In this document: positions 1 to 25,498 of the stretch, in pieces
Layout: each line of letters starts with the position of its first letter
Numbering within the stretch: the stretch's first letter is position 1
DNA from: an uncultured Hyphomicrobiales bacterium
Lineage (GTDB): Bacteria; Bacteroidota; Ignavibacteria; Kapaibacteriales; UBA7675
Direction: 5' to 3'
DNA: 64,000 nt
NCBI GenBank assembly: GCA_964445695.1
Contig: CAYULF010000028.1
Span: 7,103-71,102, forward strand
Notes under the pieces: model-generated
Told to the model about the DNA's origin: nothing
The model's input: only the letters and a program-made list of their open reading frames with translations
Database searches by the model: none
Translations under genes and position numbers: made by a program

Positions 1-508
1 CCGAATCGTAGAAGTAGCGGCGATTGCTCAGCGCAATCAGACCGTTCGTTGAGACGTAAAAACTGTCGTAACGGATACCGTTAAAATAAAACGGAAACCC
101 GATGCGCATCGGCCCCGCAAAGGCGTTGTCGGTTGAGTCGTCTTTGTTGCCCGGATTGCGGAAGTACATTTGTCCTTCCTCAAACGAATCCCAATATTCC
201 GCCGGAAACTGGTTCGGGCCTGAGATAATGCGACGCCAGGTACCACGCTCAGTCGTGGTATCGACAAAGAGCTCCGACGGCTTGGGCGTATAGGGATCGC
301 CGGCGCCGTCTTCACTGTCCACAATGTAATAACCGGTCGAGATCGGCGGCGAGGTGCGCGGCCAATCCGCTTCGGTGTCGAAAGGTTGAGGATAGGACGC
401 TCCCGCGCTTCGCCTCAACAGCTCATCGGCCGAGCCTTTTCCGCCGGCAAGCAATGGGATACTGCCGAGCAAGGTCAGGGCCAAAACAGCCAGAAATGCA
501 CGTTTCAT
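1..508 (-). CDS. 5' part (169 codons, runs off left edge) of a fourth ~1500-aa secreted surface-protein paralog; near-identical to the N-terminus of 11362-15870
   Basis: Not in the ORF track. Hand translation from the ATG at 508 gives MKRAFLAVLALTLLGSIPLLAGGKGSADELLRRSAGASYPQPFDTEADW...GFPFYFNGIRYDSFYVSTNGLIALSNRRYFYDS. It is collinear without gaps with 15363-15870, and a GGAG SD lies upstream. Confidence 0.95.
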   Translation of the reverse strand, partial: MKRAFLAVLALTLLGSIPLLAGGKGSADELLRRSAGASYPQPFDTEADWPRTSPPISTGYYIVDSEDGAGDPYTPKPSELFVDTTTERGTWRRIISGPNQFPAEYWDSFEEGQMYFRNPGNKDDSTDNAFAGPMRIGFPFYFNGIRYDSFYVSTNGLIALSNRRYFYDS

Positions 509-1042
509 AAAACACTCCAAATGTGCAGGTCATATTCAATTTGTTTAATCATCTGGGCTTACGGATGTCATCGCTCTGCAGGGTTTAACCTGCGCGGGTG
601 TTCGAGGCGTTAATCATCACCTTCAATCACACGGGGTGGTTGTATCGTGGTCCGGCTTCGTTCTGCACGACGCAGACAAGCCGACCATCCGGTCGCGTGT
701 GACTCCGCAACTGACCGCGTGCAGGAAACTCTACGCGGTCACTCTGTTAACTGGTGTTTCATGCCGGCCTCCGTGACTATTAACGTTTTGTGTGTGGAAC
801 TGTGGCTGGTACAGAGGCACAGAACCGCATCTCCGGCTCCGTTGTACAACAACAGACCGGATGACTCAAGGTCCGGGCAATATGATCTGAAATTCGGGCG
901 GTAATTGTCTTGCAGGCATTGATCACGTGCTACGGGCGGAGGGCGCGCAGATCAATGGTCCACAATTTAAACGGGCAAGATTTAAACAAACGGCGCTGGT
1001 CGGGCGGCTGTTCCAGCATCTGAGGGTATGGTTCGGCGATGG

Positions 1043-1068
1043 AACACAGAGACGCGCGTCGGGTTACA
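1043..1068 (-). promoter_or_regulatory. Conserved motif TGTAACC-N14-GTGTT (ECF-sigma-like promoter candidate), upstream of the paralog starting at 508
   Basis: Plus strand has AACAC at 1043-1047 and GGTTACA at 1062-1068. The same spacing is seen upstream of all four paralogs. Confidence 0.7.
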
Positions 1069-1107
1069 GTTGATCTATAAAAAGGATTTTCACACGGTGG
1101 AATTATT

Positions 1108-1169
1108 CTGAGCGCTTCGCTTCCTTCGCACGGCTCGGCAGCTTGCTCTACTATTTTGTTTGTCATTGA
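1108..1169 (-). repeat. Dispersed intergenic three-block motif, copy 1 (TGACAAACA-N9-AGCAAGC-N20-GCGAAGCGCTC)
   Basis: The same three blocks in the same order recur at 51488-51541 and 54284-54340. Confidence 0.7.
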
Positions 1170-1326
1170 GTGGCATGTGACCGGCCTGTGCACTTGTTTA
1201 CGGCGGGTTGGCAGATTCACCGGGAGGCTTGAGACTTATCTCTGCGCGACGAACAAGATAATCGCGCCAAGCCTGAGGCCGCCGCAGCGGCTAGGCCTCA
1301 AAGCGCTGTTTAAAACGCACAGCCTG

Positions 1327-1368
1327 AAAAATAGCACGTCGCCCCGATGTTTGGATCGGGACGACGTG
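1327..1368 (-). terminator. Intrinsic terminator of the 1399-5883 gene
   Basis: Hairpin CACGTCGtCCCGAT-ccaaac-ATCGGGgCGACGTG followed by CTATTTTT on the minus strand, 30 bp after the stop codon. Confidence 0.8.
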
Positions 1369-1398
1369 TATGCGCGAGTGTTGTCTTTGAGATGATGT

Positions 1399-4300
1399 TT
1401 AACGCAATACCTGCAGCACCTGCACCTTGTGTAGTTTACCAATGGTCAATCGACAGAAATAAGCGCCGGCCGCTACCTCCGCCCCATTGTCGTCACGCGT
1501 ATCCCAGGCTATGCTGTGCCGCGGGTCGGCAGACAACACGCCGTCGTGAAGAACGCGAACGGGATTTCCGAGTGCATCATAGAGTTCGAGTCGCACGTGC
1601 GATGCGGACGGAATGTTAAATATTATATCGGTTCCGGACCGGCAGGGATTTGGCGTGTTCGTCAGTTCCAGGTCATCGGCAAAATCGTAACTCACAACAA
1701 CTGAAGCAGAGAACTCTGTAGTTCCGTCGTAGTCGACCTGGCGCAGGCGGTATTCGTACGTTGCGCCGCGCTGCGCTTCGGCATCAAGGAAGTCGTAGTG
1801 CTGTTTAATTGTCGAAGAGCCATGTCCCTGTACAAAGCCCAGTGAATTAAAGTCGTTATGGCTGCCGGCGGGCCGGCGTTCGACGTAGAACCCGGCATTG
1901 TTTAACTCGGACGCCGTATTCCACAGAAGCTCAACACCGGACGGCGGCGCGGCAAAGCCCGCAAAGTCAAGCAGTTCTACCGGCTTGAATTCATTCGTGT
2001 AAATCGGCGGATCGGCGAAGTCGCGGAAACCGGTGTACAGGCGCAGCATGGGAATCCAGCTGCCGCGGCTGAAAGTGTTAATCTCGCCAACTTGTCCGGC
2101 GTGTGTCAGGTGCGCGTACCCGGGATTGCCGATGTTTGGTGTGAAGTCGCCGAACTCAAAACTCCCCGGGTCGTTTTCGTACAGAAAACGGCGACCGTTG
2201 AGCAGATCGTTGGCCCGGCTCATTTCCCGCAATCCTTCCTCCAATAGAATACTCAGACCGGAAACGCCGAGCTCGGGTGTTGTTCCATAATTGAGCGTCT
2301 GCATGCCCATGCGATGCGCGGAACCGCCCAGTTCAAAACCGCGCGAATCGAGCTGACTGATGTAGAGCCAGTAAACACCGGGTTCGAGAATGAGCGGCTG
2401 CGGCAACAGGTAGGTGCCGTAGGCATCAAACAGTTTATCGGTTGTTACAGAATCGCCGGCGGCGTCCAGGTCAAAGTCGCCACGCTTGCGGGTTGTGACG
2501 GAACCCGTTAACGTAACCGCCGCAGGCGCGCCCGAGTTTGAACGATACATGCCGAACTCCACCAGGTCGGCTTGCGTATTGAGCCCGCCAAAAAAAGCCT
2601 GGTAGCCCAGAATAGTATCGGGTTTGTCAATGTCAAATCTGACGAATATCCGACCGGGACCGTCGCCACCGTCCGCGCCATAGGCGCTGCCTGAATTAAA
2701 CAAGGCGCTGCTTTGTGCGCCGAGGTTAATCCCCTTGCCCGCCACGCCCGAAAATGCCGGGACGTCGTTGCGTCCCTGAACCTGCGGATGGTCGTGTGCA
2801 ATGAAGTTGTTAAACTGCAGGTCGTAGAAATCATGCACAAAGTCGTTCAGTTCATTGCCGTCTCCACCCGGCAATATCAACCGCGCACAAAGCTGATAGC
2901 GACCTGGCCTGGTATTCTGGCCATGCCACCTCGGAAAAACCTTAACGGTCTGTGTCTCACCGCGCAGAAAAGGCAGCGTCTGAGCGCGTGAGTACACCGT
3001 GCGTAAAAGCGGATCGCCGCGCTCCATAATCTGCACCCAACAGGCAAAAGCGCGGCTGGGCGATTCACTGTTGTTAACAATTGTCACCAGCGGCCGCAGG
3101 CAATTGGCGACGTTGGCCGGAAATGCCGTCTTGGCAATACGTTCGATTTCGACGCTGCTCACTTCCAGATCGACACCTTCTTTGTCAGTCAAGATGGCCA
3201 CGTTGTCGACAAAAAAGTCGTCGGCGTCGTCGCGAGGATAAGCCGGCAGACCGTTGTTTTGCGCTTTGACGGCGAACCTGACGCGCAGCAATGACTGGCC
3301 ATCCTGCGCCGCTTTTAACATAAAGCTCGGGATTTCAACAAAACCTTTGTTAAAGACAAAGTCCTTGCCCGTGTCGAAGGGAAAGTAGCGCAGCCCCTGA
3401 GCCACGGTCAACGATGAATCGCGATCCTGTTCGCTGAAGCCGCGGCCATACCCGCCGCCGCCGAAAATTGTCAGCGCCGGATTGTCCGTAATCGGGTTTT
3501 CAGGGTCCCGTGAATTGTAGTGAACACTCCAGCCGTCATCCGGAATGTTAACCAGACTGTTTAATCCCGAAGCGTCGGGATAGGCCAGGTGAACTTCCAG
3601 CTCATCCGGCTGCTGAACCGGCGTCGTTGTCCAGTCACTGTTTTGAATTACGCGCGCTTCCGGCCCCACGCGCAGTTCATCCGACCATCCGCGATCAAAG
3701 GTATTGGACGGCGGCCGCCCTGTGCGTTGATACGAAAAGGATAACAGCGCAGTCTCCGCGTCGCCCAGGTCAATGGGATAAGAAATCAGTTCATCGCCGT
3801 CCGGCGCCAGATCGCTGCCGTCCAGATCGAGGCGGTTGAGCCGCATGACGGGCGAATCATAACTTAAAGTGAAGTTCTCTTCCACATCGACCCTTTCGCG
3901 CGGCGGCGGCGGATGAAATGTATTTGCCGTCCCGTCTACAACTTCCACGCCCTCGGAGCGCCAGATGCCGGCATTGGGAAGCGGCCCGGTTTGTTTTGTG
4001 TAGTCAAAATCCGAGGCATTGTCATACAATCCGTTCAGAACCCGCATCCCGTAGACTTGCACTTTTTTAACATTGTCGAAATTCCACGGCTCGGGGTACT
4101 CCAGACCGTTGCAGGCGTAAGGTTCAGCCAACGCCGAAAAACTCAGCCGACCAAAGTGCTCCGGCTTTCCCTGCATCAGATCTTCCACCGGCGGAAAAGT
4201 CACTTCAACAAAGGCATAGGGCGGCACGCCGTTGCCGTTAAACACAAGCGGCCGACCGGCGTGATCAATCAGTCGCACGCCGCTGTTCTCGGGGTCGGCA

Positions 4301-5883
4301 AGGGCGGCGCTGTCGACGCATTGAATGTACGTAGCAATGGTTTGATTCGCGCGCAGATCATTCGTCAGTCGATACGACACCAGGAAGTTGATGTCCTGAG
4401 CCTGATAGTTAACACCGTCCGGTCCCTGGATGTCGTTTGAAAGATTCTGGAAGACCGCGACCGGCTGAAAACTGCTCAGATCCTTGTTTCCCGGTACAAC
4501 TTCAAAGTGGTCAGGATCTTCGGCTGAAACAGAATACGAGCCATCGAGTGGGTTCCTGCCGTAGAGGCGCAGGCTGACGGTCCGCAGCACATTGCGCAGT
4601 TGTGCAAATTGCACAGCCGTTGATGCTCCCATAACATTCCGGGTCTGACGTTGGTACTCGGTCTCACGCAGAAACACCTGACCGTTGTGCACCGCTTCCG
4701 TGTATTGTGAATAACGCCGCACCTCGCCCTGTGAGTCGCGGTAACGCGCCTTGCCGCGCACGCCTACAGTGGCATTCCGGCGCAGAATCGCGGCGGGATT
4801 CAGCTGTCGGCCATTAACCTCGACCTCGCTCACCGAATAACGCTCCGGAACAATTGCGATCGCGCCGTTATCGTGTTTTAAGGTGATCTGGGCGCTGATG
4901 GAAAAGTTTGGCGTAGCTGCGCCGGGACGGATGTTTGCTTTAAAGTCGATATCCGGCAAGGGCTGGTTGGGATGTTCTTTTTTACCGAGAGGCGAAAGGT
5001 TAACAAAGTAGATGGTCAGCTCCCGCCCGTCACGCGAACGACGGTACCAGACCTGACCGTAATCTTCCACGCGGTTGGTCTGACTGTTAAACTGCGAGAG
5101 ATGCCAGTCGTCCCAGAACGGCGCAATAATCGGCGCATCATCAATCAGGGCGGAGCCGTTGATTGCATCGTCATTCAGAGCCGTGTTGCGCGGCGAACGG
5201 ATACCGCCAAGCGGGTTGTGAACGTCGCCACCACAGGCCACGTGCAGAAAACCCCAGTCGTCGGCCACGGCATCGTTAAGTCCTTTTGTGAACTGTGCGT
5301 CGGTGCGCGGACGCGTGTCGTCGCTTTCATCGTCCCAGGCCGTTGCAGCGCCCGCGGGAATTGTTCGCTGCCCACTCTCATCGTAGTGGTAGCGCCGATT
5401 ACTGAGCGCGATCACGCCATTGCTCGAAACGTAAAAACTGTCGTAGCGCACGCCGTTGAAGTAAAACGGAAATCCAATCTTGATCGGACCCGCAAACGCA
5501 TTGTCGGTTGAATCGTCGGCATCGCCCGGATTGCGGAAATACGCATGTCCTTCCGGGTGCGTTGTCCAGTGCTCAGATGGAAATTGATTTGGACCTGAAA
5601 TGATCCGATACCAGGTGTCCACTTCTTCGTCAAGCGAATGCAGCAGTCTGGTCGGATCGGGAACGTGACGTGATTCCGACGGGTCTTCGCTGTCGAGCAG
5701 ATAGTAGCCGGTCGAAATTGCCGGTTCATCACGCACCCAGTCGGATTCGGCGTTGAATGGTCCTGGTATCGATTGACCGCCAGTATAAACCGTAGTTTCG
5801 TCGCTCGCCTTTTTGGCCTTAAGCGGAATTGCCATGGATAGGGCAAACAAACACAGGATAGAAATGCGTAGCAGATGTGTCAT
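1399..5883 (-). CDS. Large secreted surface protein (~1494 aa) with T9SS type-A/FlgD-Ig-like C-terminal domain; paralog C
   Basis: Signal peptide MTHLLRISILCLFALSMAIPLKA, with a GGAGG SD before the ATG at 5883. N-terminal IGFPFYFNG...YVSSNG...IAPFWDD block. C-terminal PVEL..F.G...LW.TASELNNAGFYVERR Ig module, then TPNP...IFNIP...LELYDALG...WDTRDDNG...GAYFCRL. Confidence 0.92.
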   Translation of the reverse strand: MTHLLRISILCLFALSMAIPLKAKKASDETTVYTGGQSIPGPFNAESDWVRDEPAISTGYYLLDSEDPSESRHVPDPTRLLHSLDEEVDTWYRIISGPNQFPSEHWTTHPEGHAYFRNPGDADDSTDNAFAGPIKIGFPFYFNGVRYDSFYVSSNGVIALSNRRYHYDESGQRTIPAGAATAWDDESDDTRPRTDAQFTKGLNDAVADDWGFLHVACGGDVHNPLGGIRSPRNTALNDDAINGSALIDDAPIIAPFWDDWHLSQFNSQTNRVEDYGQVWYRRSRDGRELTIYFVNLSPLGKKEHPNQPLPDIDFKANIRPGAATPNFSISAQITLKHDNGAIAIVPERYSVSEVEVNGRQLNPAAILRRNATVGVRGKARYRDSQGEVRRYSQYTEAVHNGQVFLRETEYQRQTRNVMGASTAVQFAQLRNVLRTVSLRLYGRNPLDGSYSVSAEDPDHFEVVPGNKDLSSFQPVAVFQNLSNDIQGPDGVNYQAQDINFLVSYRLTNDLRANQTIATYIQCVDSAALADPENSGVRLIDHAGRPLVFNGNGVPPYAFVEVTFPPVEDLMQGKPEHFGRLSFSALAEPYACNGLEYPEPWNFDNVKKVQVYGMRVLNGLYDNASDFDYTKQTGPLPNAGIWRSEGVEVVDGTANTFHPPPPRERVDVEENFTLSYDSPVMRLNRLDLDGSDLAPDGDELISYPIDLGDAETALLSFSYQRTGRPPSNTFDRGWSDELRVGPEARVIQNSDWTTTPVQQPDELEVHLAYPDASGLNSLVNIPDDGWSVHYNSRDPENPITDNPALTIFGGGGYGRGFSEQDRDSSLTVAQGLRYFPFDTGKDFVFNKGFVEIPSFMLKAAQDGQSLLRVRFAVKAQNNGLPAYPRDDADDFFVDNVAILTDKEGVDLEVSSVEIERIAKTAFPANVANCLRPLVTIVNNSESPSRAFACWVQIMERGDPLLRTVYSRAQTLPFLRGETQTVKVFPRWHGQNTRPGRYQLCARLILPGGDGNELNDFVHDFYDLQFNNFIAHDHPQVQGRNDVPAFSGVAGKGINLGAQSSALFNSGSAYGADGGDGPGRIFVRFDIDKPDTILGYQAFFGGLNTQADLVEFGMYRSNSGAPAAVTLTGSVTTRKRGDFDLDAAGDSVTTDKLFDAYGTYLLPQPLILEPGVYWLYISQLDSRGFELGGSAHRMGMQTLNYGTTPELGVSGLSILLEEGLREMSRANDLLNGRRFLYENDPGSFEFGDFTPNIGNPGYAHLTHAGQVGEINTFSRGSWIPMLRLYTGFRDFADPPIYTNEFKPVELLDFAGFAAPPSGVELLWNTASELNNAGFYVERRPAGSHNDFNSLGFVQGHGSSTIKQHYDFLDAEAQRGATYEYRLRQVDYDGTTEFSASVVVSYDFADDLELTNTPNPCRSGTDIIFNIPSASHVRLELYDALGNPVRVLHDGVLSADPRHSIAWDTRDDNGAEVAAGAYFCRLTIGKLHKVQVLQVLR

Positions 5884-6161
5884 CCCAGCCTCCGTAGCTG
5901 TTAACATTTTCGGTGAACAATGCGGTCAATGCAACGGCAGGAACCTGCGACAACTTAGCCGTTGCAAACCAGCGGGCGGACGGCTTGACGTCCGATTAAA
6001 GCGATCTGAATGTGGGACCGGCGGCTGTAGCTGCATCATTGAAGCAGTCGAACGGGCGTCTGGATTGCAATTCAATGACACTCAGTCAATCCGCGCAACT
6101 GTTTAAAAGCCGGTTTTGGGCAAGCGGCTTTTCAGTATCGGAATGTATGGTACGGCGACTG

Positions 6162-6187
6162 AACACCGGGGCGGCGCTGTGGTTACA
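6162..6187 (-). promoter_or_regulatory. Conserved motif TGTAACC-N14-GTGTT upstream of paralog C
   Basis: AACAC at 6162-6166 and GGTTACA at 6181-6187; 35/48 ungapped identity of 6145-6192 with 1026-1073. Confidence 0.7.
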
Positions 6188-6290
6188 GCTGAATTAACCG
6201 AGCGGCTGGATTTATTGCACTTAAACAAATTGCCTATGGGCAACTGCGCGAATCCAGGGTGCGGGAATATCAAACTCTTCCGGACCTGGG

Positions 6291-6338
6291 AAAAGTAAAG
6301 ACAGAGGAGGTCCCCGTGTTTCTTACAGCGGGGACTTC
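6291..6338 (-). terminator. Intrinsic terminator of the 6371-10891 gene
   Basis: Stem GAAGTCCCCG/CGGGGACCTC (6307-6338) followed by a T-rich run on the minus strand. Confidence 0.65.
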
Positions 6339-6370
6339 ATTGCACAACTTAATGCTCGCCGGTCTGCCGC

Positions 6371-9300
6371 CTATCTGACGACATTGAGCATGCGTACGAC
6401 CGTTTGTTCGCCAACCGTCAAGCGGCAAAAATACAAGCCTGCGGCTACCTGCAGGCCGCGCTCATCGCGGGTATCCCATTTTACCGTAGTGCGCGCAGTC
6501 GGGCGCATTTGACCTTCAGTTAACAAACGTATTGTATTGCCGAGCACATCCTGTATTTCCAAACGAACGGCAGCCGACGCCGGCAGACCAAAAGAGATAT
6601 CCGTTGACTCACTGATCGGATTGGGTGTATTTCTCAGGTCAAGTGAGTCGGCGTAGTCGTACTCAACCGTGACGGAACGCGAATACTCGACAGTCCCGTC
6701 GTAGTCGACCTGACGCAGGCGGTATTCGTAGGTCGTCCCTCGCTCCACTTTGGAATCGAGCAGGTCGTAGTTTATCTGCCGCGTTGCCGTTCCTGCGCCT
6801 TTGACAAAACCAATGGAATTAAACTCGGCACTGTACCCGACTGTGCGTCGCTCAACATAAAAGCCCGCATTGCCAGACTCCGAAGCAGTCAGCCAATACA
6901 ATTCAATTCCCCTTGGCGGCAGAGCTTCACCGTCAAAACTGGCGAGCTCAACCGGCGGAATAATTGGACAGTTGAAGGGATCAATGTAGATCGGTGGATC
7001 AGCCCAGGTCCTGGGACCAAAATAGGGTCTCAACATCGGAATCCACGAACCGCGTGTATACGTTCGCAGTCCATTGATTTCTCCGGCGTGATCCAGGTGT
7101 GCGTAGGCCGGATTTCCGACGGTCGGAGTGAATTGTTGCCAGTCGTCGCCGAAAAGACTGTTAACATACAAGAAGTGGTTGTCGTTGATCAACTCTCCCT
7201 GGCGCGTGCGCGTGCGGAAGTTGTGTGACAGCATCATGCCGGCGCTGCTGCCGCCCGGCTCCGGTTTTGTGGTATAATTTAAGGTCTGCATTCCCATGCG
7301 GTAGGCCGAAGCTCCCAGTTCAAGACCTTCCTGACCAGTTTGTGAAATTACCATCCAATATTTTCCGGGTGGTAAAACAAGCTCCTTGGGCAACAGATAT
7401 GTCGCATACTCGCCAAATATCAGATCGTCGGTAGCGCCGGTAGACGGCTGTTCACGTGCATCCAGATCGTAGCGCCCGCGTTCACGCCGCATGAAAGATC
7501 CCGGAAGTGGGTTTGGAGCCGGTATTCCCCCCTCGTTTTCGTGAATCGCAAAGTGAACTTCCTGTGTATTGTCTGCAAGAGCCGCAAAATATGGCTGATA
7601 ACCGAGAATTGTATCCTGCCGCGACAGTCCAAACTTAACTGCAATCCGTCCGCTCACACTACCGGCATCATCGCCGAACGCCGTCGCGGATGAAAAACGC
7701 CCGCTGTTGTATGCCCGCAGATTTATTCCCTTGCCTGGCGTCTCTGCAAATGATTCAGCGCTGTTTGTACCGACAATGTCCGGTTTATCATAGGCGAGAA
7801 CATTGGCAAAATCCAGAGTGTAAAAACTGCTCGTGATGTCGTTTAAGGGATTTGGATCTCCACCGGGGACAAGTACCTTTGCTGCTGCAAAGTATGTCAG
7901 CGACCGGAACTGACGCGAATTCCAAATCGGAAATATCTTGACCGTTTCAGTTTTGGCGCGTAAAAAAGGCAGGGTCTGAACCCAACAATAGGCGATCTTT
8001 TCGGTTCCGCCGCCTTTTTCACTCAGCATCGCGACAGCACTAAAAGCACGCGACGGCAGATTGCTGTTGTTCACGATCTTGATCTGAATCGGAATCCCTT
8101 CGGCCTGGCTGGCCGGAAATGCCGAGTATGGAAAAGCTTCGTTCTGTTGACCGATTGTCACCGTGCTCATTTCCAGATCAGGTGTTTCTGTCGGCGGCAT
8201 GACCACGACATTATCGATGTAAAAATCGTCAAAGTCGTCGCGCGGATATTTAACTATTCCATCGTCTTTTGCTTTGACTTTTAACTTGAATCTGAAATAG
8301 CGATTGCCGTCGCTGGGCGCATTGAGTATATAGTCCGGAACACAGACCCAGGCTTTAACAAAAGCGGGGTCGCTGCCCGCATCGAGCGAGTCGTAACGCA
8401 GTCCCTGTCTTCGCGTCAGAGCCGAATCAGGATTGTCTTCGTGAAAACCGCGCCTGTACCCGCCTCCGCCAAAAACGGTAAATGCGGGATTGTCGACAAT
8501 CGGATTGTCGAGATCGGCAATGTTGGGATGCACGCTCCAGCCGTCATCAGGAATATTGACAATGTTGTTAAAACTATCAGGGCTGGGATTGGCAAAGTGC
8601 AGTTCCAGTACGTCCGGCTCCTGCAGCGGTGCAGTCGATTCCCATTGTCCATCTTCCACCACGCGCACCTCGGGTCCGATGCGAATCTCATCAGACCAGC
8701 CGCGATCAAACGTATTGGCCGGCGGAATACCGGTGCGCTGATACGAAAAAGATAAAACAGCGGAGGATCGTCCGCGCAAATCAATCGGAAATGAGATGAG
8801 CTCATCGCCGCCCGGTGTCTGGTCCCGGCCATTCTCATCGATGCGATTCATTCGCATGACTGGTCCAACCAGCGTAATATCAGGATTGCCGGGCGCTTCC
8901 ACCACATCGATCGGCGGCGGCGGATTGAACGTATGTTTCCTGCCGTCGACCGCTTCAGCACCATGTGAAACCCATTTGTAACTGTCGGGAATCGTACCAT
9001 TACGCCTGGTGAAATGGAAGCCGGAAACGTTATCGTAGAAGCTGCTTAACACCTGCAGCCCGTGCAGCCGAATACTGCAGGTATTGTCAAACGTCCACTC
9101 TTCCCCAAGCTTAACATCGGTGCAAGATAGATTCTGCGCCAACGCGTCCGCACGCAGCCGCCCAACAAGGTCAGGCTGGAAATTTGTTTCAAAGTCCGGG
9201 AAAGCAACCTGGACAAATCCATATGGAGGCACGCCGTTGCCGGTAAACTCCAGAGCCTCGCCCTTGTAGTTAACAAGTTGTACACCCGTTAAATCGCTGT

Positions 9301-10891
9301 TGGTGAGCGCCGCGCTGTCAACACAAATGCTGCGATTGTATACCAATGTATCTTGTACCACTTCATTACGAATCTGAAGGGTCGCGCGGAACCGGGCGTC
9401 CTGTTCACGATAATTGATACCGCCGACACCCTGGATGTCGTTGGACAGGTTCTGATACGTCACAATCGGCCGGAAGCTACCCAGCAAGGTGTTTCCGATC
9501 AGAAGTTCATAATTGTCCGGATCCGCAACCGGAATGGTGTACTGGAGAGTTTGCGGATCTTTCATCAGGAATTCAATCCGCACAGCTCTGAAAAGATTCC
9601 GGTATTGTTTAAAACGCAAGGCATTGTTGGGACCAAGCACATTCTCAATCGCATGGGGTGTATCCGTTTCCCGGACAAATACCTGCCCGTCGCGTAATCC
9701 TTCGGTATACTGCACATAGCGATTGACTTCCCCTTTGTTGTCCTTGTAGCGTGCCTGTCCACGAAGACCGACGGTTGCATTCTGCCGAACGATAGCGGAT
9801 GAACTCACGGGGCGATTGTTTACAATGAGGATCGGTGAGGAGTACTTGTGAGTCAGAACGACGACGGAGCTATCCTTGCTGTTTAAGGTCACGTGTGCAT
9901 TAACGGTAAACGCCACACGCTGCTCACCCGTCTGCGCATCATTTGCAAACACAATGTCAGGCAAGCCCGCATCGGGATGTTGTTTGGCGCCGATCGGAAC
10001 GAGATTGACAAAGTAGATTGTCAATTCTTTGTTGTCCGCTGATCGCCAGTACCACACCTGACCAAAATCTTCCGCCTCATTGGTGTTAATGTTAAACTGG
10101 GGAAGCTGCCAGTCATCCCAAAAAGCGGCAATCAAGGGCGTTTCTTCAATCATACCGGACTGTGCAAAACCATCGGCATCCAGCGAGGTATTGCGCGCAG
10201 CCCGAATTCCGGCAAGCGGATCGTCGGGATCGCCGCCGCAGGCCACGTGATAATACCCCCAATCGTCCGCGACGGCATCGTTAACACCACGTGTATTCTG
10301 GGCGTCATTGCGGACACGCGTATCGTCGCTCTCCGAGTCCCAGGCCGTGGATTTTCCTTCCGGTATTGTTCGTTCGCCGTTGGCATCGTAATAGTAACGC
10401 CGGTTGCTCAGCGCAATCAGTCCGTTGCTCGACACGTAAAAACTATCGTATCGCACACCGTTAAAATAGTACGGGAAGCCTATGTTGATCGGCCCCGCAA
10501 AGGCATTGTCGGTTGAATCTTCCCGATCTCCCGGATTTCTGAAATAAGCAAAACCCTCTTTGTTAGTCGTCCAGTGTTCAGCCGGAAACTGATTCGGCCC
10601 CGAGACAATTCTGTGCCAGGCTTCGGGTTCTTTATCGAGGGATCGCAGAAGATCCACCACGTTCGGACGTAGCGGCGTGTCCAACGGATCTTCGCTGTTG
10701 AGCATGTAATAACCAGTGGAAATCGCCGGTTGGTTGCGCTCCCAGTCAGCCTTCAGGTTAAACGGCCCGGGAAGCGATTGTCCGCTGGTTGCAGCGGCGA
10801 CGGGATCGCCTGCGTTTTTGTCGGCGCAAAGAAGATTAAACGGGGAAATCAATAAAGCGCTGAGGAATAAACAATGTAGCAGTCGTCCCAC
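6371..10891 (-). CDS. Large secreted surface protein (1506 aa) with T9SS-type CTD; paralog B
   Basis: GTG start with GGAGG SD and a signal peptide. Collinear along its whole length with 1399-5883 and 11362-15870 (STGYY..SED, SGPNQFP, DDSTDNAFAGP, FQNLSNDIQG, GNGVPPY, FSYQRTG, RGSWIP, PVEL module). Confidence 0.93.
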   Translation of the reverse strand: MGRLLHCLFLSALLISPFNLLCADKNAGDPVAAATSGQSLPGPFNLKADWERNQPAISTGYYMLNSEDPLDTPLRPNVVDLLRSLDKEPEAWHRIVSGPNQFPAEHWTTNKEGFAYFRNPGDREDSTDNAFAGPINIGFPYYFNGVRYDSFYVSSNGLIALSNRRYYYDANGERTIPEGKSTAWDSESDDTRVRNDAQNTRGVNDAVADDWGYYHVACGGDPDDPLAGIRAARNTSLDADGFAQSGMIEETPLIAAFWDDWQLPQFNINTNEAEDFGQVWYWRSADNKELTIYFVNLVPIGAKQHPDAGLPDIVFANDAQTGEQRVAFTVNAHVTLNSKDSSVVVLTHKYSSPILIVNNRPVSSSAIVRQNATVGLRGQARYKDNKGEVNRYVQYTEGLRDGQVFVRETDTPHAIENVLGPNNALRFKQYRNLFRAVRIEFLMKDPQTLQYTIPVADPDNYELLIGNTLLGSFRPIVTYQNLSNDIQGVGGINYREQDARFRATLQIRNEVVQDTLVYNRSICVDSAALTNSDLTGVQLVNYKGEALEFTGNGVPPYGFVQVAFPDFETNFQPDLVGRLRADALAQNLSCTDVKLGEEWTFDNTCSIRLHGLQVLSSFYDNVSGFHFTRRNGTIPDSYKWVSHGAEAVDGRKHTFNPPPPIDVVEAPGNPDITLVGPVMRMNRIDENGRDQTPGGDELISFPIDLRGRSSAVLSFSYQRTGIPPANTFDRGWSDEIRIGPEVRVVEDGQWESTAPLQEPDVLELHFANPSPDSFNNIVNIPDDGWSVHPNIADLDNPIVDNPAFTVFGGGGYRRGFHEDNPDSALTRRQGLRYDSLDAGSDPAFVKAWVCVPDYILNAPSDGNRYFRFKLKVKAKDDGIVKYPRDDFDDFYIDNVVVMPPTETPDLEMSTVTIGQQNEAFPYSAFPASQAEGIPIQIKIVNNSNLPSRAFSAVAMLSEKGGGTEKIAYCWVQTLPFLRAKTETVKIFPIWNSRQFRSLTYFAAAKVLVPGGDPNPLNDITSSFYTLDFANVLAYDKPDIVGTNSAESFAETPGKGINLRAYNSGRFSSATAFGDDAGSVSGRIAVKFGLSRQDTILGYQPYFAALADNTQEVHFAIHENEGGIPAPNPLPGSFMRRERGRYDLDAREQPSTGATDDLIFGEYATYLLPKELVLPPGKYWMVISQTGQEGLELGASAYRMGMQTLNYTTKPEPGGSSAGMMLSHNFRTRTRQGELINDNHFLYVNSLFGDDWQQFTPTVGNPAYAHLDHAGEINGLRTYTRGSWIPMLRPYFGPRTWADPPIYIDPFNCPIIPPVELASFDGEALPPRGIELYWLTASESGNAGFYVERRTVGYSAEFNSIGFVKGAGTATRQINYDLLDSKVERGTTYEYRLRQVDYDGTVEYSRSVTVEYDYADSLDLRNTPNPISESTDISFGLPASAAVRLEIQDVLGNTIRLLTEGQMRPTARTTVKWDTRDERGLQVAAGLYFCRLTVGEQTVVRMLNVVR

Positions 10892-11162
10892 ACAGTCCTC
10901 CAGTCAAAATTTCGTCAGCCGGTTAAAGTGATCTGTTTGCGGCAGCCTGGTACCACATCTCAACTTGGCTCTGTACTGCAAGCCGCACTTCATGTTACTC
11001 ACGCCATGCAGTTCGGTGCATGAAAGTTCGAATTGCAACTCGCTTTCAACTTCGCGGTTTCGCGAAAATTGACAGTAGCTTTGTTGAACACTCAACAACA
11101 ATCGAGAAGGCTGTTCATCAAGGTGGGGGGCAAACTTGAGGGATTGCGTCGGGTCAGTGGTT

Positions 11163-11188
11163 AACACGTATTACCGGTCGAGGTTACA
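11163..11188 (-). promoter_or_regulatory. Conserved motif TGTAACC-N14-GTGTT upstream of paralog B
   Basis: AACAC at 11163-11167 and GGTTACA at 11182-11188. Confidence 0.7.
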
Positions 11189-11292
11189 GCTTGACAGGCA
11201 TAGTTGACGCGGATTGTGGTTCTGCAGAATTGAGAGTTAATACATTTAATGTGTGCGCTGAAGAAACATACAAACATGTGCAAAAGTGTTTA

Positions 11293-11331
11293 AAAATCGA
11301 AAACCCCCGAACATTTCTGTCCGGGGGTTTT
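11293..11331 (-). terminator. Strong intrinsic terminator of the 11362-15870 gene
   Basis: Minus strand reads AAAACCCCCGGACA-GAAA-TGTTCGGGGGTTTT then CGATTTTT. Confidence 0.9.
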
Positions 11332-11361
11332 CTTATCTATTTACCGTAGAACGGCGATGAA

Positions 11362-14300
11362 TTACTTCACCACGTTCAGGGTACGAACGATCGTCTCTTC
11401 GCCGATAGTCAGGCGGCAGATGTAAGCACCTGCAGCAACTTCGGCACCCGTGTTGTCGCGGGTATCCCAGGAGATCGTTTTCTCAGCAGCCGGACGCATG
11501 TCGCCGTCGTGCAGAACGCGGACGGAGTTGCCAAGTACGTCGATGATTTCGAGGCGTACATTGGAAGCGCTCGGGACGCTGAAGGTAATGTCGGTCATTT
11601 CCGTAAACGGATTCGGCTTGTTGGCCAGTTGCAGAGCGTCGGCATAGTCGTATTCCAGCGTGATAGCACGCGAGAAGGAGACCGAGCCGTCAAAGTCAAC
11701 CTGGCGCAGACGGTATTCGTACGTTTCACCGCGGAATACGTCGGCATCCAGGAAGTCATACTTGACCGGAGCCGTCGAGGAACCAGCACCTTGAACAAAG
11801 CCGAGCGACAGGTATTCGCTGTCGGAGCCGGCCATGCGGCGCTCAACGTAGAAACCGGCGTTGTTGGTTTCCGAAGCGGTCGCCCAGTACAGTTCGATAC
11901 CGGCGGGCGGCAGCGACTCACCATCGAAGTCGGTCAGTTCGACCGGAGCGAATTTCTCGCACTCTTCGAAGTCAACGTACTGCGGCGGGTTGCTGAAGGC
12001 GCGCTCACCAAAGTACGGGCGGATCAGCGGAATCCAGCTACCGCGTGTGTAGGTGCGATAGAAGACAACCTGACCGGTGTGCGCAAGGTGCGCATAACCC
12101 GGGTTGCCGATGGTCGGCGAGAACTGCGACCATGCACCACTGCGATAGGTGTTTTCGTATGCGAACCAGCTACCGTTGATCAGCTGACCGGAGCGATTGC
12201 GCTCGCGCAGCGTTTTGTCAATGATAAGGCTGGTACCGCTGACACCAAGGACCGGAATCGTCGTGTAGTTCGTCGTTTGCATACCCATGCGGGAAGCCGT
12301 AGCACCAAGTTCGAAACCTTCCGTACCCATCTGAGCAACGGCCATCCAGTAGATACCCGGCGAAAGAACAACTTCTTTCGGCAGCAGGTAGGTGGCGTAC
12401 TCATTGAAGATCGGGTCGGACTGCGAAGTAGCCGGACGGCCTTGAGCGTCGAGGTCATAGAGACCACGCTGACGCAGCATGCGCGTACCGGAAACTTGCG
12501 TTGCCGACGGGCTTCCGCCGCCGTCTTCGTAGATCGAGTAGGTTGTATTCAGAACATCGGAGTTAAGGCTACCGAAGTGAGCCTGATAACCGAGGATCGT
12601 ATCCTGCGTGAACAGTTCGAACTTCATCGCGATCTGACCGGAACGGTTACCAGCATCGGAGCCAAAGGCCGTCGAAGCCGAGAAACCACCGCTGTTGGCG
12701 CCGGAGAGGTTAAGACCTTTACCGGTAGCCTGCGAGAATTGCGGAACGTCGTTCGTACCGGTCGGGTTCGGCGGATCGTAAGCAAACGCCTGACCGAAGA
12801 CCAGGTTGAATTCACCGTAGGTCGTGTCGTTCAGAGGCTCGGGATCGCCGCCGGGGATGCGCATACGAGCAGCCAGGATATAGCGGCCCGGACGCGTCTG
12901 GCGAGCATTCCATACCGGGAAGGCTTTAACCGACTCGGTTTGAGCGCGCAGGAACGGCAGCGTTTGTGCACGGCAGTATACGCGCAGTTCATCGGAAGCA
13001 CCGCGTTCTTTGATCAGAACCTGAACAGCGAAAGCGCGCGAGGGAATGATGCTGTTGTTGGACAGTTTCACTTCAACCGGAACGCTGGAAGCCTGGCTGG
13101 CAGGAACCATCGTGTACGGCCAGTTCACGCGAACAAGGCTGATTTCCAGGTCGGGCGTTTCTGTCGGGAACAGGATCGCCGTGTTGTCAATGTAGAAGCG
13201 GTCATCGTCATCCTGCGGGTTCGGCGGAACACTGTTACGGCTCGCGCGAACGCTCAGTTTGAAGCGGAAGAAACGAGCGCCGTCGTTCGGGGCGTCGAGG
13301 ATGTAGCTCGGGATTTCAACAAAGACTTTGTTGAATTCCTGGTCTTTACCATCGTCGAACTGATCGTAGCGCAGACCGTCCGCATTCGTCAGAGCCGAAT
13401 CGGAGTTCATCTCATGCCAGCCGCGACGGAAACCACCACCACCAAAGACGGTGAAGGACGGGTTGTTCGAGATGGGCTTGGCAGGATCAGCCAGGTTGGG
13501 GTGCGTGCCCCAGCCGCGCGGCTCAATGTTCGTGATGTTGTTGTAAGCATCCGGGCTCGGGTTGGCAAAATCCAGCTCAAGCAGGTCAGGACGCTGTACC
13601 GGAGACGTCGTTTCCCAGTTACCGTCCTGAACGACACGGATCTCCGGGCCGATCAGAGTAGCGTCGGACCAACCGCGGTCAAACGTGTTGTCCGGCGGAA
13701 CACCGGTACGCTGGTACGAGAAGGACAGGATCGCCGAGGAGCGACCGCGCAGGTCGACAGGGAACGAACGGAGTTCGTCACCGTTCGGAGCCAGGTCATT
13801 ACCGGCAAGGTCAAAGCGATTCATGCGGATAACAGGCGAGTTCAGAGTTACGAACTCGTTGTTGGCCGACGAGAATTCACCTCTCGGCGGCGGCGGGTTG
13901 AAGGTGTTGGCGTCGCCGTCAACAGCCTCAGCGCCCAGCGAGACCCACTTGTTCACTGACGGAAGGGTACCTTCGCGACGTGAGAAGTTAAAGTCCGTAA
14001 CGTTGTCCGAGAAGCTGTTGAGGATGCGGATACCAAACAGACGGATACGCGTGGTATCGTCAAAGGCCCATTGATCGCCGTAACCTGCACGCGAACCGGA
14101 ACATTGTGCCGGCTCACCGATAACCAGCGAGGTCAAACGACCAATCTGGTTCGGCAGGAACTGGTTCGTTTTGTAGGCCGGGAATTTGACTTCCACAAAG
14201 CCGTACGGCGGAACGCCGTTGCCGTTGAACGGCACGGACTCACCAGCGAAGTTGACAAGACGCACACCCGAAACGTTCGAGTTGGCCAGCGCAAAGCTGT

Positions 14301-15870
14301 CAACACAAACCTGACGGCTGTAGACGATCGTGTCATTCAGAATGTCATTCTGGATTTTGAAACGGGTGCGGAAGGTCAGATCCTGTTTCTGGAAGTTGAC
14401 ACCGCGCGTGCCTTGAATGTCGTTCGTCAGGTTCTGGAAGATGGCCACAGGTTGCAGCGCACCGAGAAGCTGATCGCCGACGAGAAGCTCGTAGTTGTTC
14501 GGGTCGGAAACCGAGATGTTAAACTTGCCGTCGGTCGGATCCGGAATCAGATAGTTGATACGAACCACGCGCAGCACGTTTTTGTACTGCTTGAATTTGA
14601 TGGCAAGGTCAGTGTTCGGCGTCGAAGTCTCGGAGTTAACCGGACCAACAACAAACACGTTGCGGTTCCACAGGTAGGTCGAGTGCTGCGTATAGCGCTG
14701 CTCCTGGAAGTTGTCATCGATGTAGCGGGCTTTACCACGCACACCAACGGTCGCATTGAAGCGCACCACGGCCCAGGGGTCGACGGGACGGTTGCCCACC
14801 ACAAACAGCGGCGGGTTTTTGAAGCGGTACAGGAAGTTGATCGTCGAGTCCGAACGATTCAGAGTCACCTGTGCGTTCACATAGAACGCCGGGCTGCCTT
14901 CACCGATGCGGTTGTTCGCGCCAAAACTGATCGTACCGCCATTGGGGTTGGTTTTCAGGCCAATCGGCGAGAGCTGCAAATAGTAGATCGTCAGACGATC
15001 GCGGCTGACCGAACGCTTGAACCATACCTGACCGTAGTCTTCTTTCAGGTTCAGTTCGTTGTTGAACTGCGAAAGTTGCCAGTCATCCCAGAACGGCGCG
15101 ATAATCGGCGCGTCCTGAATGATGCTCGTCGTGTTGATACCGGGGCCAGGGCCGAAGTCCGTCAGGTTGGAGTTCGTAGGCCAGCGGATACCGCCGGTCG
15201 GGTTGGACGGATCACCGCCGCAAGCCACCCAGGTGTAACCCCAGTCGTCGGCGATAGGATCATTCAATCCATCGGCGTCGGGATCATTACGCGTACGGGT
15301 ATCGTCGCTTTCGGGATCCCATGCGGTCGGCTGACCTTCGGGAATCGTGCGCTCGCCCGTTTCCGAATCGTAGAAGTAGCGGCGATTGCTGAGCGCAATC
15401 AGACCGTTCGTTGAGACATAAAAACTGTCATAACGAATGCCGTTGAAATAGAACGGGAAACCGATACGCATCGGACCCGCGAAGGCATTGTCAGTTGAAT
15501 CGTCTGCGTTACCGGGATTGCGGAAGTACATGTGTCCTTCCTCAAACGAATCCCAGTATTCCGCCGGAAACTGGTTCGGGCCGGAGATAATGCGACGCCA
15601 GGTACCACGCTCGGTGGTGGTATCGACGAACAGCTCAGAGGGCTTCGGCGTATAGGGGTCGCCGGCGCCATCTTCACTATCCACAATGTAATACCCGGTG
15701 GAGATCGGCGGCGACGTGCGCGGCCAATCAGCCTCGGTGTCGAAAGGTTGAGGGTACGACGCTCCCGCGCTTCGCCTCAACAGGTCATCGGCCGAGCCTT
15801 TTCCACCGGCAACCAGAGGGATGCTACCGAGAAAAGTCAGGGCCAAGACAGCTAGAAATGCACGTTTCAT
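11362..15870 (-). CDS. Large secreted surface protein (1502 aa) with T9SS-type CTD; paralog A, codon-optimised (candidate major surface/S-layer-like protein)
   Basis: Start re-set to MKRAFLAV at 15870 based on the GGAG SD and the match to the start at 508. Signal peptide and the same domain order as B and C. TTC/AAC/TAC/GGT-rich codons. Confidence 0.93.
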   Translation of the reverse strand: MKRAFLAVLALTFLGSIPLVAGGKGSADDLLRRSAGASYPQPFDTEADWPRTSPPISTGYYIVDSEDGAGDPYTPKPSELFVDTTTERGTWRRIISGPNQFPAEYWDSFEEGHMYFRNPGNADDSTDNAFAGPMRIGFPFYFNGIRYDSFYVSTNGLIALSNRRYFYDSETGERTIPEGQPTAWDPESDDTRTRNDPDADGLNDPIADDWGYTWVACGGDPSNPTGGIRWPTNSNLTDFGPGPGINTTSIIQDAPIIAPFWDDWQLSQFNNELNLKEDYGQVWFKRSVSRDRLTIYYLQLSPIGLKTNPNGGTISFGANNRIGEGSPAFYVNAQVTLNRSDSTINFLYRFKNPPLFVVGNRPVDPWAVVRFNATVGVRGKARYIDDNFQEQRYTQHSTYLWNRNVFVVGPVNSETSTPNTDLAIKFKQYKNVLRVVRINYLIPDPTDGKFNISVSDPNNYELLVGDQLLGALQPVAIFQNLTNDIQGTRGVNFQKQDLTFRTRFKIQNDILNDTIVYSRQVCVDSFALANSNVSGVRLVNFAGESVPFNGNGVPPYGFVEVKFPAYKTNQFLPNQIGRLTSLVIGEPAQCSGSRAGYGDQWAFDDTTRIRLFGIRILNSFSDNVTDFNFSRREGTLPSVNKWVSLGAEAVDGDANTFNPPPPRGEFSSANNEFVTLNSPVIRMNRFDLAGNDLAPNGDELRSFPVDLRGRSSAILSFSYQRTGVPPDNTFDRGWSDATLIGPEIRVVQDGNWETTSPVQRPDLLELDFANPSPDAYNNITNIEPRGWGTHPNLADPAKPISNNPSFTVFGGGGFRRGWHEMNSDSALTNADGLRYDQFDDGKDQEFNKVFVEIPSYILDAPNDGARFFRFKLSVRASRNSVPPNPQDDDDRFYIDNTAILFPTETPDLEISLVRVNWPYTMVPASQASSVPVEVKLSNNSIIPSRAFAVQVLIKERGASDELRVYCRAQTLPFLRAQTESVKAFPVWNARQTRPGRYILAARMRIPGGDPEPLNDTTYGEFNLVFGQAFAYDPPNPTGTNDVPQFSQATGKGLNLSGANSGGFSASTAFGSDAGNRSGQIAMKFELFTQDTILGYQAHFGSLNSDVLNTTYSIYEDGGGSPSATQVSGTRMLRQRGLYDLDAQGRPATSQSDPIFNEYATYLLPKEVVLSPGIYWMAVAQMGTEGFELGATASRMGMQTTNYTTIPVLGVSGTSLIIDKTLRERNRSGQLINGSWFAYENTYRSGAWSQFSPTIGNPGYAHLAHTGQVVFYRTYTRGSWIPLIRPYFGERAFSNPPQYVDFEECEKFAPVELTDFDGESLPPAGIELYWATASETNNAGFYVERRMAGSDSEYLSLGFVQGAGSSTAPVKYDFLDADVFRGETYEYRLRQVDFDGSVSFSRAITLEYDYADALQLANKPNPFTEMTDITFSVPSASNVRLEIIDVLGNSVRVLHDGDMRPAAEKTISWDTRDNTGAEVAAGAYICRLTIGEETIVRTLNVVK

Positions 15871-16009
15871 AGAATGCTCCAAAAGGTGCAGGATAAAGAA
15901 ACAATGTTTATTCACACAGATTTACAGATTTCGTCGCTCTGCAGGTACTTGGGTTGCTCGGGTATTAACCCGTTAAAAATCATCGATTTAGAGCCAAACT
16001 CCGCGACAG

Positions 16010-16035
16010 AACACACAATAATTTTGCGGGTTACA
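16010..16035 (-). promoter_or_regulatory. Conserved motif TGTAACC-N14-GTGTT upstream of paralog A
   Basis: AACAC at 16010-16014 and GGTTACA at 16029-16035. Confidence 0.7.
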
Positions 16036-16140: not shown

Positions 16141-16182
16141 TAAAATCAAATGGGGCCATGTGCAAATTTTCCACATGGCCCC
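16141..16182 (-). terminator. Intrinsic terminator after the NarL-type regulator
   Basis: Perfect 11-bp stem GGGGCCATGTG/CACATGGCCCC (16152-16182) followed by ATTTGATTTTA on the minus strand. Confidence 0.75.
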
Positions 16183-16221: not shown

Positions 16222-16866
16222 CTAGTCGGTTACCTTCTCAAGCAGCCTATGCTTCAGAGCGTACTGCATCAACTCGGAGTTGGTGGCGAGTTTCATCTTC
16301 TCCAGAATGCGCTTGCGATACGTGCTGATCGTTTTCACCGACAGGTGCAGTTCCTTTGCAATACCTCCTACAGACTTGCCGGAACCGATCTGGCATAAAA
16401 TCTGGAACTCGCGGTCTGACAGAGTTTCGTGGGCGGCCAGATCCTCGGATTCACGGGCGGCATCCTCAATCAGTTTTTCCGCCAGAGATGGGCTCACATA
16501 GCGCCCGCCGGACAGGCACTTGCGAATAGCCGTCATCAGTTCGATTGTGTCTGCTGATTTGTCGACGTAACCACTGGCACCGGCTTTGAGCGCCCGCACG
16601 GCGTAACGCTCTTCCGGCTGAGCGCTTAGAATCAGAATGGGCATGTCCGATTTTGCACTGCGAAGGCTTTTCAGGAGATCGAGCCCTGCACGCCCCGGCA
16701 TGGAGAGATCAAGCAGAACGATGTCAAAATCCCGCTTTGCTATTTGCGCAAGCGCTTCTTCCCCATTTTGAGCTTCGGTGACTTCCATATCCATACTATA
16801 TGTCAGGAAGAGTTTCAGACCGCTGCGAAGAATCTGATGGTCGTCTGCTACCAGTGCTGTGTGCAT
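16222..16866 (-). CDS. NarL/FixJ-family response regulator (REC + LuxR HTH)
   Basis: VADDH, phospho-acceptor in LLDLSMPG, GASGYVDK, LSDREFQIL...IAKELHLSVKTISTYRKRILEKM. Confidence 0.95.
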   Translation of the reverse strand: MHTALVADDHQILRSGLKLFLTYSMDMEVTEAQNGEEALAQIAKRDFDIVLLDLSMPGRAGLDLLKSLRSAKSDMPILILSAQPEERYAVRALKAGASGYVDKSADTIELMTAIRKCLSGGRYVSPSLAEKLIEDAARESEDLAAHETLSDREFQILCQIGSGKSVGGIAKELHLSVKTISTYRKRILEKMKLATNSELMQYALKHRLLEKVTD

Positions 16867-20002: not shown

Positions 20003-20021
20003 ATCAGGCCATGCTCCCGGA

Positions 20022-24856: not shown

Positions 24857-25498
24857 TCAGGGCAGATTCAATAGTGCAAATCTGATCAATCCGGCGACGT
24901 TCTTGATTTGCAGCTTTTGCATGAGGTTAGTGCGGTGAGCCTCGACTGTGCGCGGACTGATGAACAGTTCTTCAGCGATTTCCTTACTGGTCAAGCCCTT
25001 TGATATCAACTTCAGAATTTCCTGTTCGCGGTCTGACAGGTATATATTGACATTGGCAATGCTGAACTCATCACTGAAGTATGGAACTTCGTTGGGATTG
25101 GCCATTATCTTCAAAATTGACGAGCTGAAAACGCGCTGACCACGCACCACGGCATGCAGCGCATCAATCAATTCCTGACGGCCAACTTCTTTTGACAGGT
25201 ATCCGTTGGCCCCGGCGGACATGGCCTTGGTCAAGTGAAAATTGTCTTCGAGCGACGTCAACATGATGATTCGAATGCTCTTGTCGTACTCCTTCAGCTC
25301 CAGGACTGCTTCAATTCCGGTCTTTTCCGGCATCAGGATATCGATCAGTGCCGCATCGGGGTGGAGTTCTTTGACGAGCCGGACAGCATTGTTACCATCG
25401 GGCGCTTCGCCGACAATCTCAATGTCGTTTTCAGACTTCAGCAGCGTTTTCAATCCGAGCCGAAATACTTCATGATCATCTGCGATGACTATACGCAT
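24857..25498 (-). CDS. NarL/FixJ-family response regulator (REC + LuxR HTH)
   Basis: IADDH, LIDILMPEKTG, GANGYLSK, LSDREQEILKLI.KG.TSKEIAEELFISPRTVEAHRTNLMQKL; lies 63 bp downstream of the giant gene. Confidence 0.95.
   Translation of the reverse strand: MRIVIADDHEVFRLGLKTLLKSENDIEIVGEAPDGNNAVRLVKELHPDAALIDILMPEKTGIEAVLELKEYDKSIRIIMLTSLEDNFHLTKAMSAGANGYLSKEVGRQELIDALHAVVRGQRVFSSSILKIMANPNEVPYFSDEFSIANVNIYLSDREQEILKLISKGLTSKEIAEELFISPRTVEAHRTNLMQKLQIKNVAGLIRFALLNLP

Follow-up and report, generated by a model that had tools for sequence, protein, structure and literature searches.

A stretch of 64,000 nucleotides (nt) from an uncultured Kapabacteria-like bacterium (GenBank assembly GCA_964445695.1, contig CAYULF010000028.1, positions 7,103 to 71,102; hereafter the window, meaning this whole 64-kb stretch) carries four tandem minus-strand genes for related proteins of ∼1500 amino acids (aa) each, all four downstream of a copy of the same bipartite motif, TGTAACC-N14-GTGTT. 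We consider it very likely that these four sites are the promoters of the paralogs and belong to the type read by extracytoplasmic function (ECF, or group 4) sigma factors, with a sigma from a conserved Kapabacteria/Bacteroidota family as the most likely reader. Behind this assignment stand direct observations: the motif, how it is conserved across genomes and laid out, and its recurrence at all the sigma genes of the family that we examined.

Four copies of one motif in the window

An exact search for the plus-strand form of the motif, AACAC-N14-GGTTACA, returned exactly four matches in the 64 kb (1043-1068, 6162-6187, 11163-11188 and 16010-16035) and none in 100 dinucleotide-preserving shuffles, in agreement with the first-pass annotation of this DNA, which had described one copy per upstream region with 12 invariant bases and invariant spacing. 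On the minus strand, which is the sense strand of the array, all four sites read (c)TGTAACC-N14-GTGTT and are oriented with the paralogs, each lying between the terminator of the preceding gene and the start of the next paralog. The distances from motif end to start codon are 139, 271, 254 and 534 nt, with starts at 15870, 10891, 5907 and 508.

16010..16035, minus strand: putative promoter of paralog 4; TGTAACC at 16035-16029 (-35), 14 nt, GTGTT at 16014-16010 (-10 region, GTT core); 139 nt to the ATG at 15870
11163..11188, minus strand: putative promoter of paralog 3; TGTAACC-N14-GTGTT; 271 nt to the GTG at 10891
6162..6187, minus strand: putative promoter of paralog 2; TGTAACC-N14-GTGTT; 254 nt to the ATG at 5907
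1043..1068, minus strand: putative promoter of paralog 1; TGTAACC-N14-GTGTT; 534 nt to the ATG at 508, with a long mosaic leader

Relaxed searches of the window (two mismatches, GTAACC-N12-18-GTT, or GTAAC-N17-GTT) added no further intergenic site, which bears out the earlier statement that other intergenic regions hold no full copy, and the housekeeping genes of the 64 kb are without the motif. Among metagenome contigs from related strains, variants around the sites are confined to the spacer or the flanks: the paralog 4 site has no variants in strains 95-99% alike, and those at the paralog 1 site fall at 1061 (spacer) and 1070 (flank), outside the 12 conserved bases.

Conservation of the motif across genomes

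A scan of species-representative genomes found a locus in a sister metagenome-assembled genome (MAG; locus L001, JAUIKM01) that has the same four-gene array and 88% nt identity to the window, as well as two contigs of a Candidatus (Ca.) Kapaibacterium MAG, one with three tandem paralogs (L002) and the other with one (L003), at ∼47% aa identity to those of the window. The exact 12 bases and their spacing precede three copies in L001, two of the three in L002 and the single copy in L003; in TGTAACC-N14-GTGTT, 12 of 12 bases are thus invariant across all 10 of these paralog sites, the four of the window included. Comparison of the window with L001 shows no change at any of 36 motif positions and changes at 11 of 42 spacer positions (p = 6e-4), and at the L001 ortholog of the paralog 3 site all 12 bases are kept while 5 of the 14 spacer bases differ. 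Spacers and flanks are unrelated among the sites of the window, L002 and L003. Since some leaders of the array resemble each other (see The paralog array), conservation seen within the window alone could partly stem from duplication, a doubt that the comparison across genomes removes. The middle paralog of L002 has a 260-nt upstream region (14424-14684) without the motif even at three mismatches, and this copy may be co-transcribed with the first.

A metagenome scan yielded 31 further, more distant paralog homologs. In one lineage, at 34-36% aa identity (L023, with two copies, and L029), TGTAAC-N17-GTT stands before all three paralogs, in the forms TGTAACC..ATGTT, TGTAACT..ATGTT and TGTAACA..TAGTT. 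Judged from these comparisons, the conserved core is TGTAAC-N17-GTT, of which the window's clade holds a stricter version. The remaining distant homologs (L004-L022 and others, 31-38% aa identity) have no motif, from which it follows that ECF control is lineage-specific. These distant lineages carry instead, downstream of a purN-like gene, either a sigma-70-like TTGTCA-N17-(TG)nGTTAAT or a TTTTGG-N15-TTGCATTTTTACG box. The paralog family is single-copy in them and likewise lies downstream of the purN-like gene. The AT-rich TTGTCAAT-N14-GTGTTAAT of L014-L020, L030 and L032, found at about -124 from the start, can be read as TTGTCA-N17-GTTAAT with TG; in L008-L011 the promoter region lies at about -220 to -255, and a TACTTTTG box is found closer to the start in distant lineages.

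An ECF sigma factor family with the same motif

When all collected loci were searched for ECF genes, two were found, both in L003, where they flank the paralog at distances of 3 kb and 2 kb. The first of these sigma genes has cTGTAACG-N16-GTT ending 26 nt before its ATG, and its divergent neighbour, whose product has a Por_Secre_tail domain, also has the motif. All nine lineages of this family that were examined (L003 twice, L035, L036/L043, L037, L039, L047, L048 and L049; 49-100% aa identity) have TGTAAC, 16-17 nt, and GTT (GTA in one) upstream of the sigma gene, with the motif ending 26-105 nt before the called start codons. A motif in front of its own sigma gene is a hallmark of ECF autoregulation, which would apply to this family as read from its upstream regions. 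The first-pass annotation had proposed to ask whether an ECF sigma gene carries the motif; in related genomes one does, though in a slightly different sub-type (TGTAAC[G/T]-N14-nGGTT).

At nine of nine loci, the product of the gene after the sigma gene begins with a conserved domain of ∼80 aa, continues with a transmembrane segment and ends in a variable C-terminal part. Membrane anti-sigma factors are built in this way, and a putative cognate anti-sigma would accordingly sit behind the sigma gene at all nine loci; NCBIfam also gave a weak 'antisigma' match. TIGR02937, the generic ECF model, is the only NCBIfam model that the sigma proteins themselves pass. L003 and L035 each come from genomes with at least two paralogous sigmas of the family.

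The organism of the window very probably has this sigma, with a TGTAACG-N14-CGGTT promoter next to metG. We presume so because one family locus (L043, P0121) lies on contig 27 of the MAG whose contig 12 carries the L001 four-gene array, and because a second locus, L036 (P0005), which is 90% identical to L043, comes from run ERR13847729, which also contains window DNA at 98.9% identity; the connection between L036 and the window is made by the common run accession and the similar divergence from the sister MAG.

The motif is also found upstream of neighbouring genes for Ig-like proteins or proteins with type IX secretion system (T9SS) tails, several of them with Por_Secre_tail. All matches whose context was checked stand immediately in front of a gene in the same orientation, apart from L035 1664-1639. 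That site (L035 1639-1664, minus strand) is a perfect TGTAACG-N14-AGGTTttt followed on its strand only by open reading frames (ORFs) of 62-68 aa; its product could be a small protein, a small RNA or an antisense transcript.

The paralog array

The genes of the array, the regulator gene just upstream of it and the terminators that separate them are as follows, the terminators being read from sequence.

16222-16866: LuxR-type response regulator gene (GerE/LuxR helix-turn-helix), just upstream of the array
16142..16182, minus strand: predicted intrinsic terminator after the LuxR-type regulator gene; 11-bp GC-rich stem and T-run
11362..15870, minus strand: paralog 4, 1502 aa; has a signal peptide and, at the C-terminus, a FlgD_ig / Por_Secre_tail-like domain that is probably a T9SS sorting domain
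11299..11332, minus strand: predicted strong intrinsic terminator after paralog 4; 15-bp stem
6371..10891, minus strand: paralog 3, 1506 aa
6300..6334, minus strand: weaker terminator-like hairpin after paralog 3
1399..5907, minus strand: paralog 2, 1502 aa
1335..1368, minus strand: predicted strong intrinsic terminator after paralog 2; 14-bp stem
1..508, minus strand: paralog 1, first 169 codons; the gene runs off the window and is full length (1505 aa) in L001

The hairpin at 16142..16182 is predicted to isolate promoter 4 from transcription upstream. A scan of the sense strand of the four intergenic regions found no sigma-70-like promoter, and inspection of the same regions found no Bacteroidetes TTTG or TAnnTTTG box at a suitable distance. 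With terminators behind the preceding genes and no sigma-70-like promoter, each paralog therefore needs a promoter of its own, and the motif is the only shared promoter candidate in the four intergenic regions.

The paralog proteins have signal peptides, and their sole family matches are borderline ones to C-terminal FlgD_ig / Por_Secre_tail, which suggests that they bear a T9SS sorting domain; a PDB sequence search with the paralog profile gave no match. Pairwise identity among the paralogs is 51-54%, except for copies 1 and 4, which are 91-97% identical (window 1-508 and 11362-15870; L001 20-4540 and 15386-19903). The paralog 4 protein is 99% identical to its L001 ortholog, though the loci average 88% nt identity. 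The likeness of copies 1 and 4 and the conservation of paralog 4 point to recent duplication, gene conversion or unusually strong constraint. Contigs of ∼93%-similar strains (X3, X4 and X5, from biofloc and other metagenomes) join position 1750 to 11852, skipping 10.1 kb; these strains would therefore have fewer copies, and the copy number of the array would be strain-variable. In a salt-marsh metatranscriptome (X7), contigs at 95-99% identity match paralog 4 alone, and this only in parts (11574-15791): a close relative expresses a paralog-4-like gene in situ in salt marsh.

The first-pass annotation had called the DNA around the motif mostly unrelated, a description that needs qualifying for two of the leaders, since leaders 1 and 2 stay clearly similar over more than 45 nt past the motif and leader 1 is a mosaic that combines parts resembling leader 2 with parts resembling leader 4. 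In this leader (508-1042, minus strand, 534 nt) the distal part resembles leader 2 and the last ∼90 nt resemble the proximal leader 4, a composition that suggests recombination between array members. The part resembling leader 2 includes a vestigial Shine-Dalgarno sequence and ATG (ACGGAGGCCGGCATGAAACACCAG, ∼775-752), followed by a stop.

Behind some sites there is a second conserved box: counted from GTGTT, TGTCGCSG follows at +2 and AGTTTGGC at roughly +10-15. It is carried by paralog 4 (window 15990-16009), the third copy of L002 (20498-20520) and L003 (9859-9880), and would fall at the extreme 5′ end of the predicted transcripts. The window also contains an isolated CTGTAACC half-site at 42053-42060 on the minus strand, upstream of a 597-aa ORF, where the earlier reading had placed only this half in front of a fibre gene. 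The half is indeed present there and is probably due to chance, because GTT is not at the right spacing (none at N16-17); the bases after it (ctgtcgcag) loosely resemble the box behind the paralog 4 site.

Promoter identity and alternative readings

The two halves of the motif are dissimilar, with no dyad or direct-repeat symmetry, and are held at a fixed distance across an unconstrained spacer, which is the pattern expected of the two DNA-binding domains of a sigma factor. The features by which ECF promoters are known (an AAC -35, a short GTT-like -10 and a free spacer of 16-17 nt) are all present here as TGTAAC(C)-N16/17-GTT, and autoregulatory placement before the sigma gene recurs in all nine lineages, in the slightly different sub-type described above. 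The original description of the sites as ECF-sigma-type promoters, GTAACC-N16-GTT, thus agrees with the conservation footprint, the unlike halves at fixed spacing, the published ECF -35 and the sigma-gene sites; its proposal that the four paralogs form one alternative-sigma regulon is supported by all testable evidence, with the sigma itself a predicted component.

From these patterns we infer promoter function, start sites, the sigma that reads the sites and an inducing signal along the following lines. Each site would be the core promoter of one paralog, read by RNA polymerase with an ECF-type (group 4) sigma, of which region 4 would contact TGTAAC(C) as the -35 element and region 2 would contact the GTT within GTGTT, 16-17 nt downstream, as a short -10. 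Transcription would start ∼6-8 nt past GTT, giving leaders of roughly 130-530 nt, and each paralog would form its own transcription unit bounded by the upstream terminator, so that the four genes answer together to one sigma. The most likely sigma would come from the conserved Kapabacteria/Bacteroidota ECF family, encoded beside a single-pass membrane anti-sigma and presumably driving its own gene from TGTAAC-N17-GTT; its release by the anti-sigma after an envelope or extracellular signal would then lead to more sigma and turn on genes for surface or secreted T9SS cargo, the array among them.

Two other kinds of element were considered. None of the four sites matches a sigma-54 promoter (TGGCAC-N5-TTGC), whose GG and GC elements stand 10 nt apart. 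An RNA element is unlikely: the Rfam scan of the whole window was empty and the motif halves are not complementary.

Several points weigh against the assignment to this sigma family or soften the evidence for it. There is no ECF sigma gene in the 64-kb window. TGTAAC-N17-GTT has 24 matches in 448 kb of non-redundant loci compared with 2.9 ± 1.6 in shuffles, an enrichment inflated by the choice of these loci via paralogs and sigma genes. The metatranscriptome contigs, the sole RNA for the locus, stop inside the coding sequence (at 15791) and include no 5′ end. Leaders of 254-534 nt in three of the four genes are long, and a second, proximal promoter or some additional control is possible. Lastly, the paralog sites have C at position 7 and GTGTT, where the sigma-gene sites have G or T and nGGTT followed by yTT, a consistent sub-class difference; a different, perhaps paralogous, sigma could therefore read the paralog sites.

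This last point leads to the alternative that fares best, namely that the sites are ECF promoters but are read by a different ECF sigma, e.g. a paralog dedicated to this gene family, so that their likeness to the autoregulatory promoters reflects a shared -35 preference only. We regard this as unlikely. The sub-class distinction on which it builds, invariant TGTAACC...GTGTT in 10 of 10 paralog sites versus TGTAAC[G/T]...nGGTTyTT in 12 sigma-associated sites, is joined by the presence of at least two paralogous family sigmas per genome (L003, L035) and by the lack of a sigma gene in the window, but other observations speak against it: the paralog sites of L023 and L029 fall outside the strict sub-class (TGTAACT...ATGTT, TGTAACA...TAGTT), the sigma promoters of L037 and L047 have TTGTT and so bridge the classes, and the L003 paralog lies close to two sigma genes of the family itself, 3 kb from one and 2 kb from the other.

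Alternatively, the motif could be a transcription-factor site, bound for example by the LuxR-type regulator encoded at 16222-16866, with the real promoter elsewhere in the long leaders (139-534 nt). The position of that GerE/LuxR gene immediately upstream of the array, a further such gene at 24857-25498 and the second conserved box behind some sites (TCGCSG, AGTTTGGC) are compatible with this idea, which we nevertheless judge quite improbable: the halves lack the dyad or direct-repeat symmetry looked for in a NarL/LuxR site, no homolog of the regulator is found near the motif in L002, L003, L023 or L029, no sigma-70-like or Bacteroidetes-type promoter was found in the four intergenic regions, and the motif stands 26-105 nt before the starts of nine ECF sigma lineages, the classic position of an autoregulated promoter. 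Least credible is a passive duplication remnant or a recombination or gene-conversion site with no transcriptional role. The kinship of leaders 1 and 2, the mosaic make-up of leader 1, the 91-97% identity of paralogs 1 and 4 and the varying copy number among strains (the 1750 to 11852 joint) would fit such a site, but the motif is kept at a single-copy member (L003) and across paralogs only ∼35-50% identical in protein with spacer and flanks randomised, and it also occurs at genes unrelated to the paralogs, both sigma genes and those for other cargo.

Comparison with known systems and significance

Promoters of Bacillus subtilis sigma-X (TGTAAC-N17-CGAC) and sigma-W (TGAAAC-N16-CGTA) share with the sites described here a TGTAAC-type -35 with an AAC core and a 16-17 nt spacer, and the systems are alike in envelope-related regulons and autoregulation; they differ in the -10 (CGAC or CGTA versus GTT), and the sigma family is unrelated in detail. 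SigR/SigH-type (ECF12) promoters, GGAAT-N18-GTT, belong to an actinobacterial group with a zinc anti-sigma (RsrA-type). They have the same short GTT -10 and bipartite ECF architecture, but a -35 of GGAAT rather than TGTAAC and another spacing convention.

The ECF16 (SigF / EcfF / BcrS-type) consensus, tGTAACc-N16-CGAA (PMC3420878, PMC8315932), comes close in the -35. The two share TGTAACC in full and a distance of 16 nt from it to the start of the -10 core, with GTT where the consensus has CGAA, and in both cases the sigma gene would be under autoregulation through its own motif, with a co-transcribed membrane anti-sigma behind it. The sites nevertheless fall outside the ECF16 class, having GTT (GTGTT or nGGTT) and not CGAA as their -10 and a Kapabacteria/Bacteroidota family of sigmas that pass the generic ECF model only; the targets here are large secreted proteins, not oxidative-stress genes.

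In function, the nearest parallel is, in our analysis, PorXY-SigP of Porphyromonas gingivalis, where SigP controls genes of the type IX secretion machinery (PMC4800418). Both cases would tie an ECF sigma of a Bacteroidota lineage to type IX secretion and both have a response-regulator gene beside ECF-dependent genes, but the targets here are cargo-like, the neighbouring regulator is LuxR-type and not PorX-like, and the comparison is one of function. In a literature search, neither a TGTAAC...GTT promoter nor a cargo-directed ECF regulon turned up for Bacteroidota, nor did such a promoter for T9SS genes.

As a regulatory element it is well supported though of an ordinary kind, and the finding leaves the understanding of ECF sigma factor function unchanged. 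We know of nothing reported on transcription signals in this uncultured Kapabacteria lineage, for which, together with its Bacteroidota relatives, the work offers TGTAAC-N17-GTT as a promoter consensus open to testing, along with a candidate sigma/anti-sigma pair. It also connects an ECF regulon with genes whose very large products are probably surface proteins secreted by the T9SS, and describes a multigene array whose members would be separate transcription units under common control; synthetic circuits could use the promoter and sigma as an orthogonal part. A more speculative and rather doubtful extension is that the strict form, cTGTAACC-N14-GTGTT, invariant in 10 of 10 sites although the paralogs of these genomes are as little as 47% identical (aa), marks a dedicated sigma/anti-sigma switch, possibly with the LuxR-type regulator acting as PorX does with SigP, for a variable family of giant T9SS surface proteins. 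If true, type IX secretion in Kapabacteria would have an ECF circuit specific to its cargo, of a sort so far undescribed.

Other genes of the window

A 457-aa ORF without a Pfam match (18698-20071, minus strand) lies in a run of minus-strand genes that includes an OmpA-like protein, and over ∼200 aa it resembles the 1500-aa paralogs from several genomes, at 25-31% identity. Further along, a giant ORF of 4820 aa (25562-40024, minus strand) with matches to GEVED and G8 domains is preceded by the 597-aa ORF mentioned above and followed by the second LuxR-type response regulator gene (24857-25498). The product of the minus-strand ORF at 58668-60074 is a sigma-54-dependent response regulator with receiver, AAA+ and lid domains, which indicates that sigma-54, unrelated to the motif, is in use in this organism as well.

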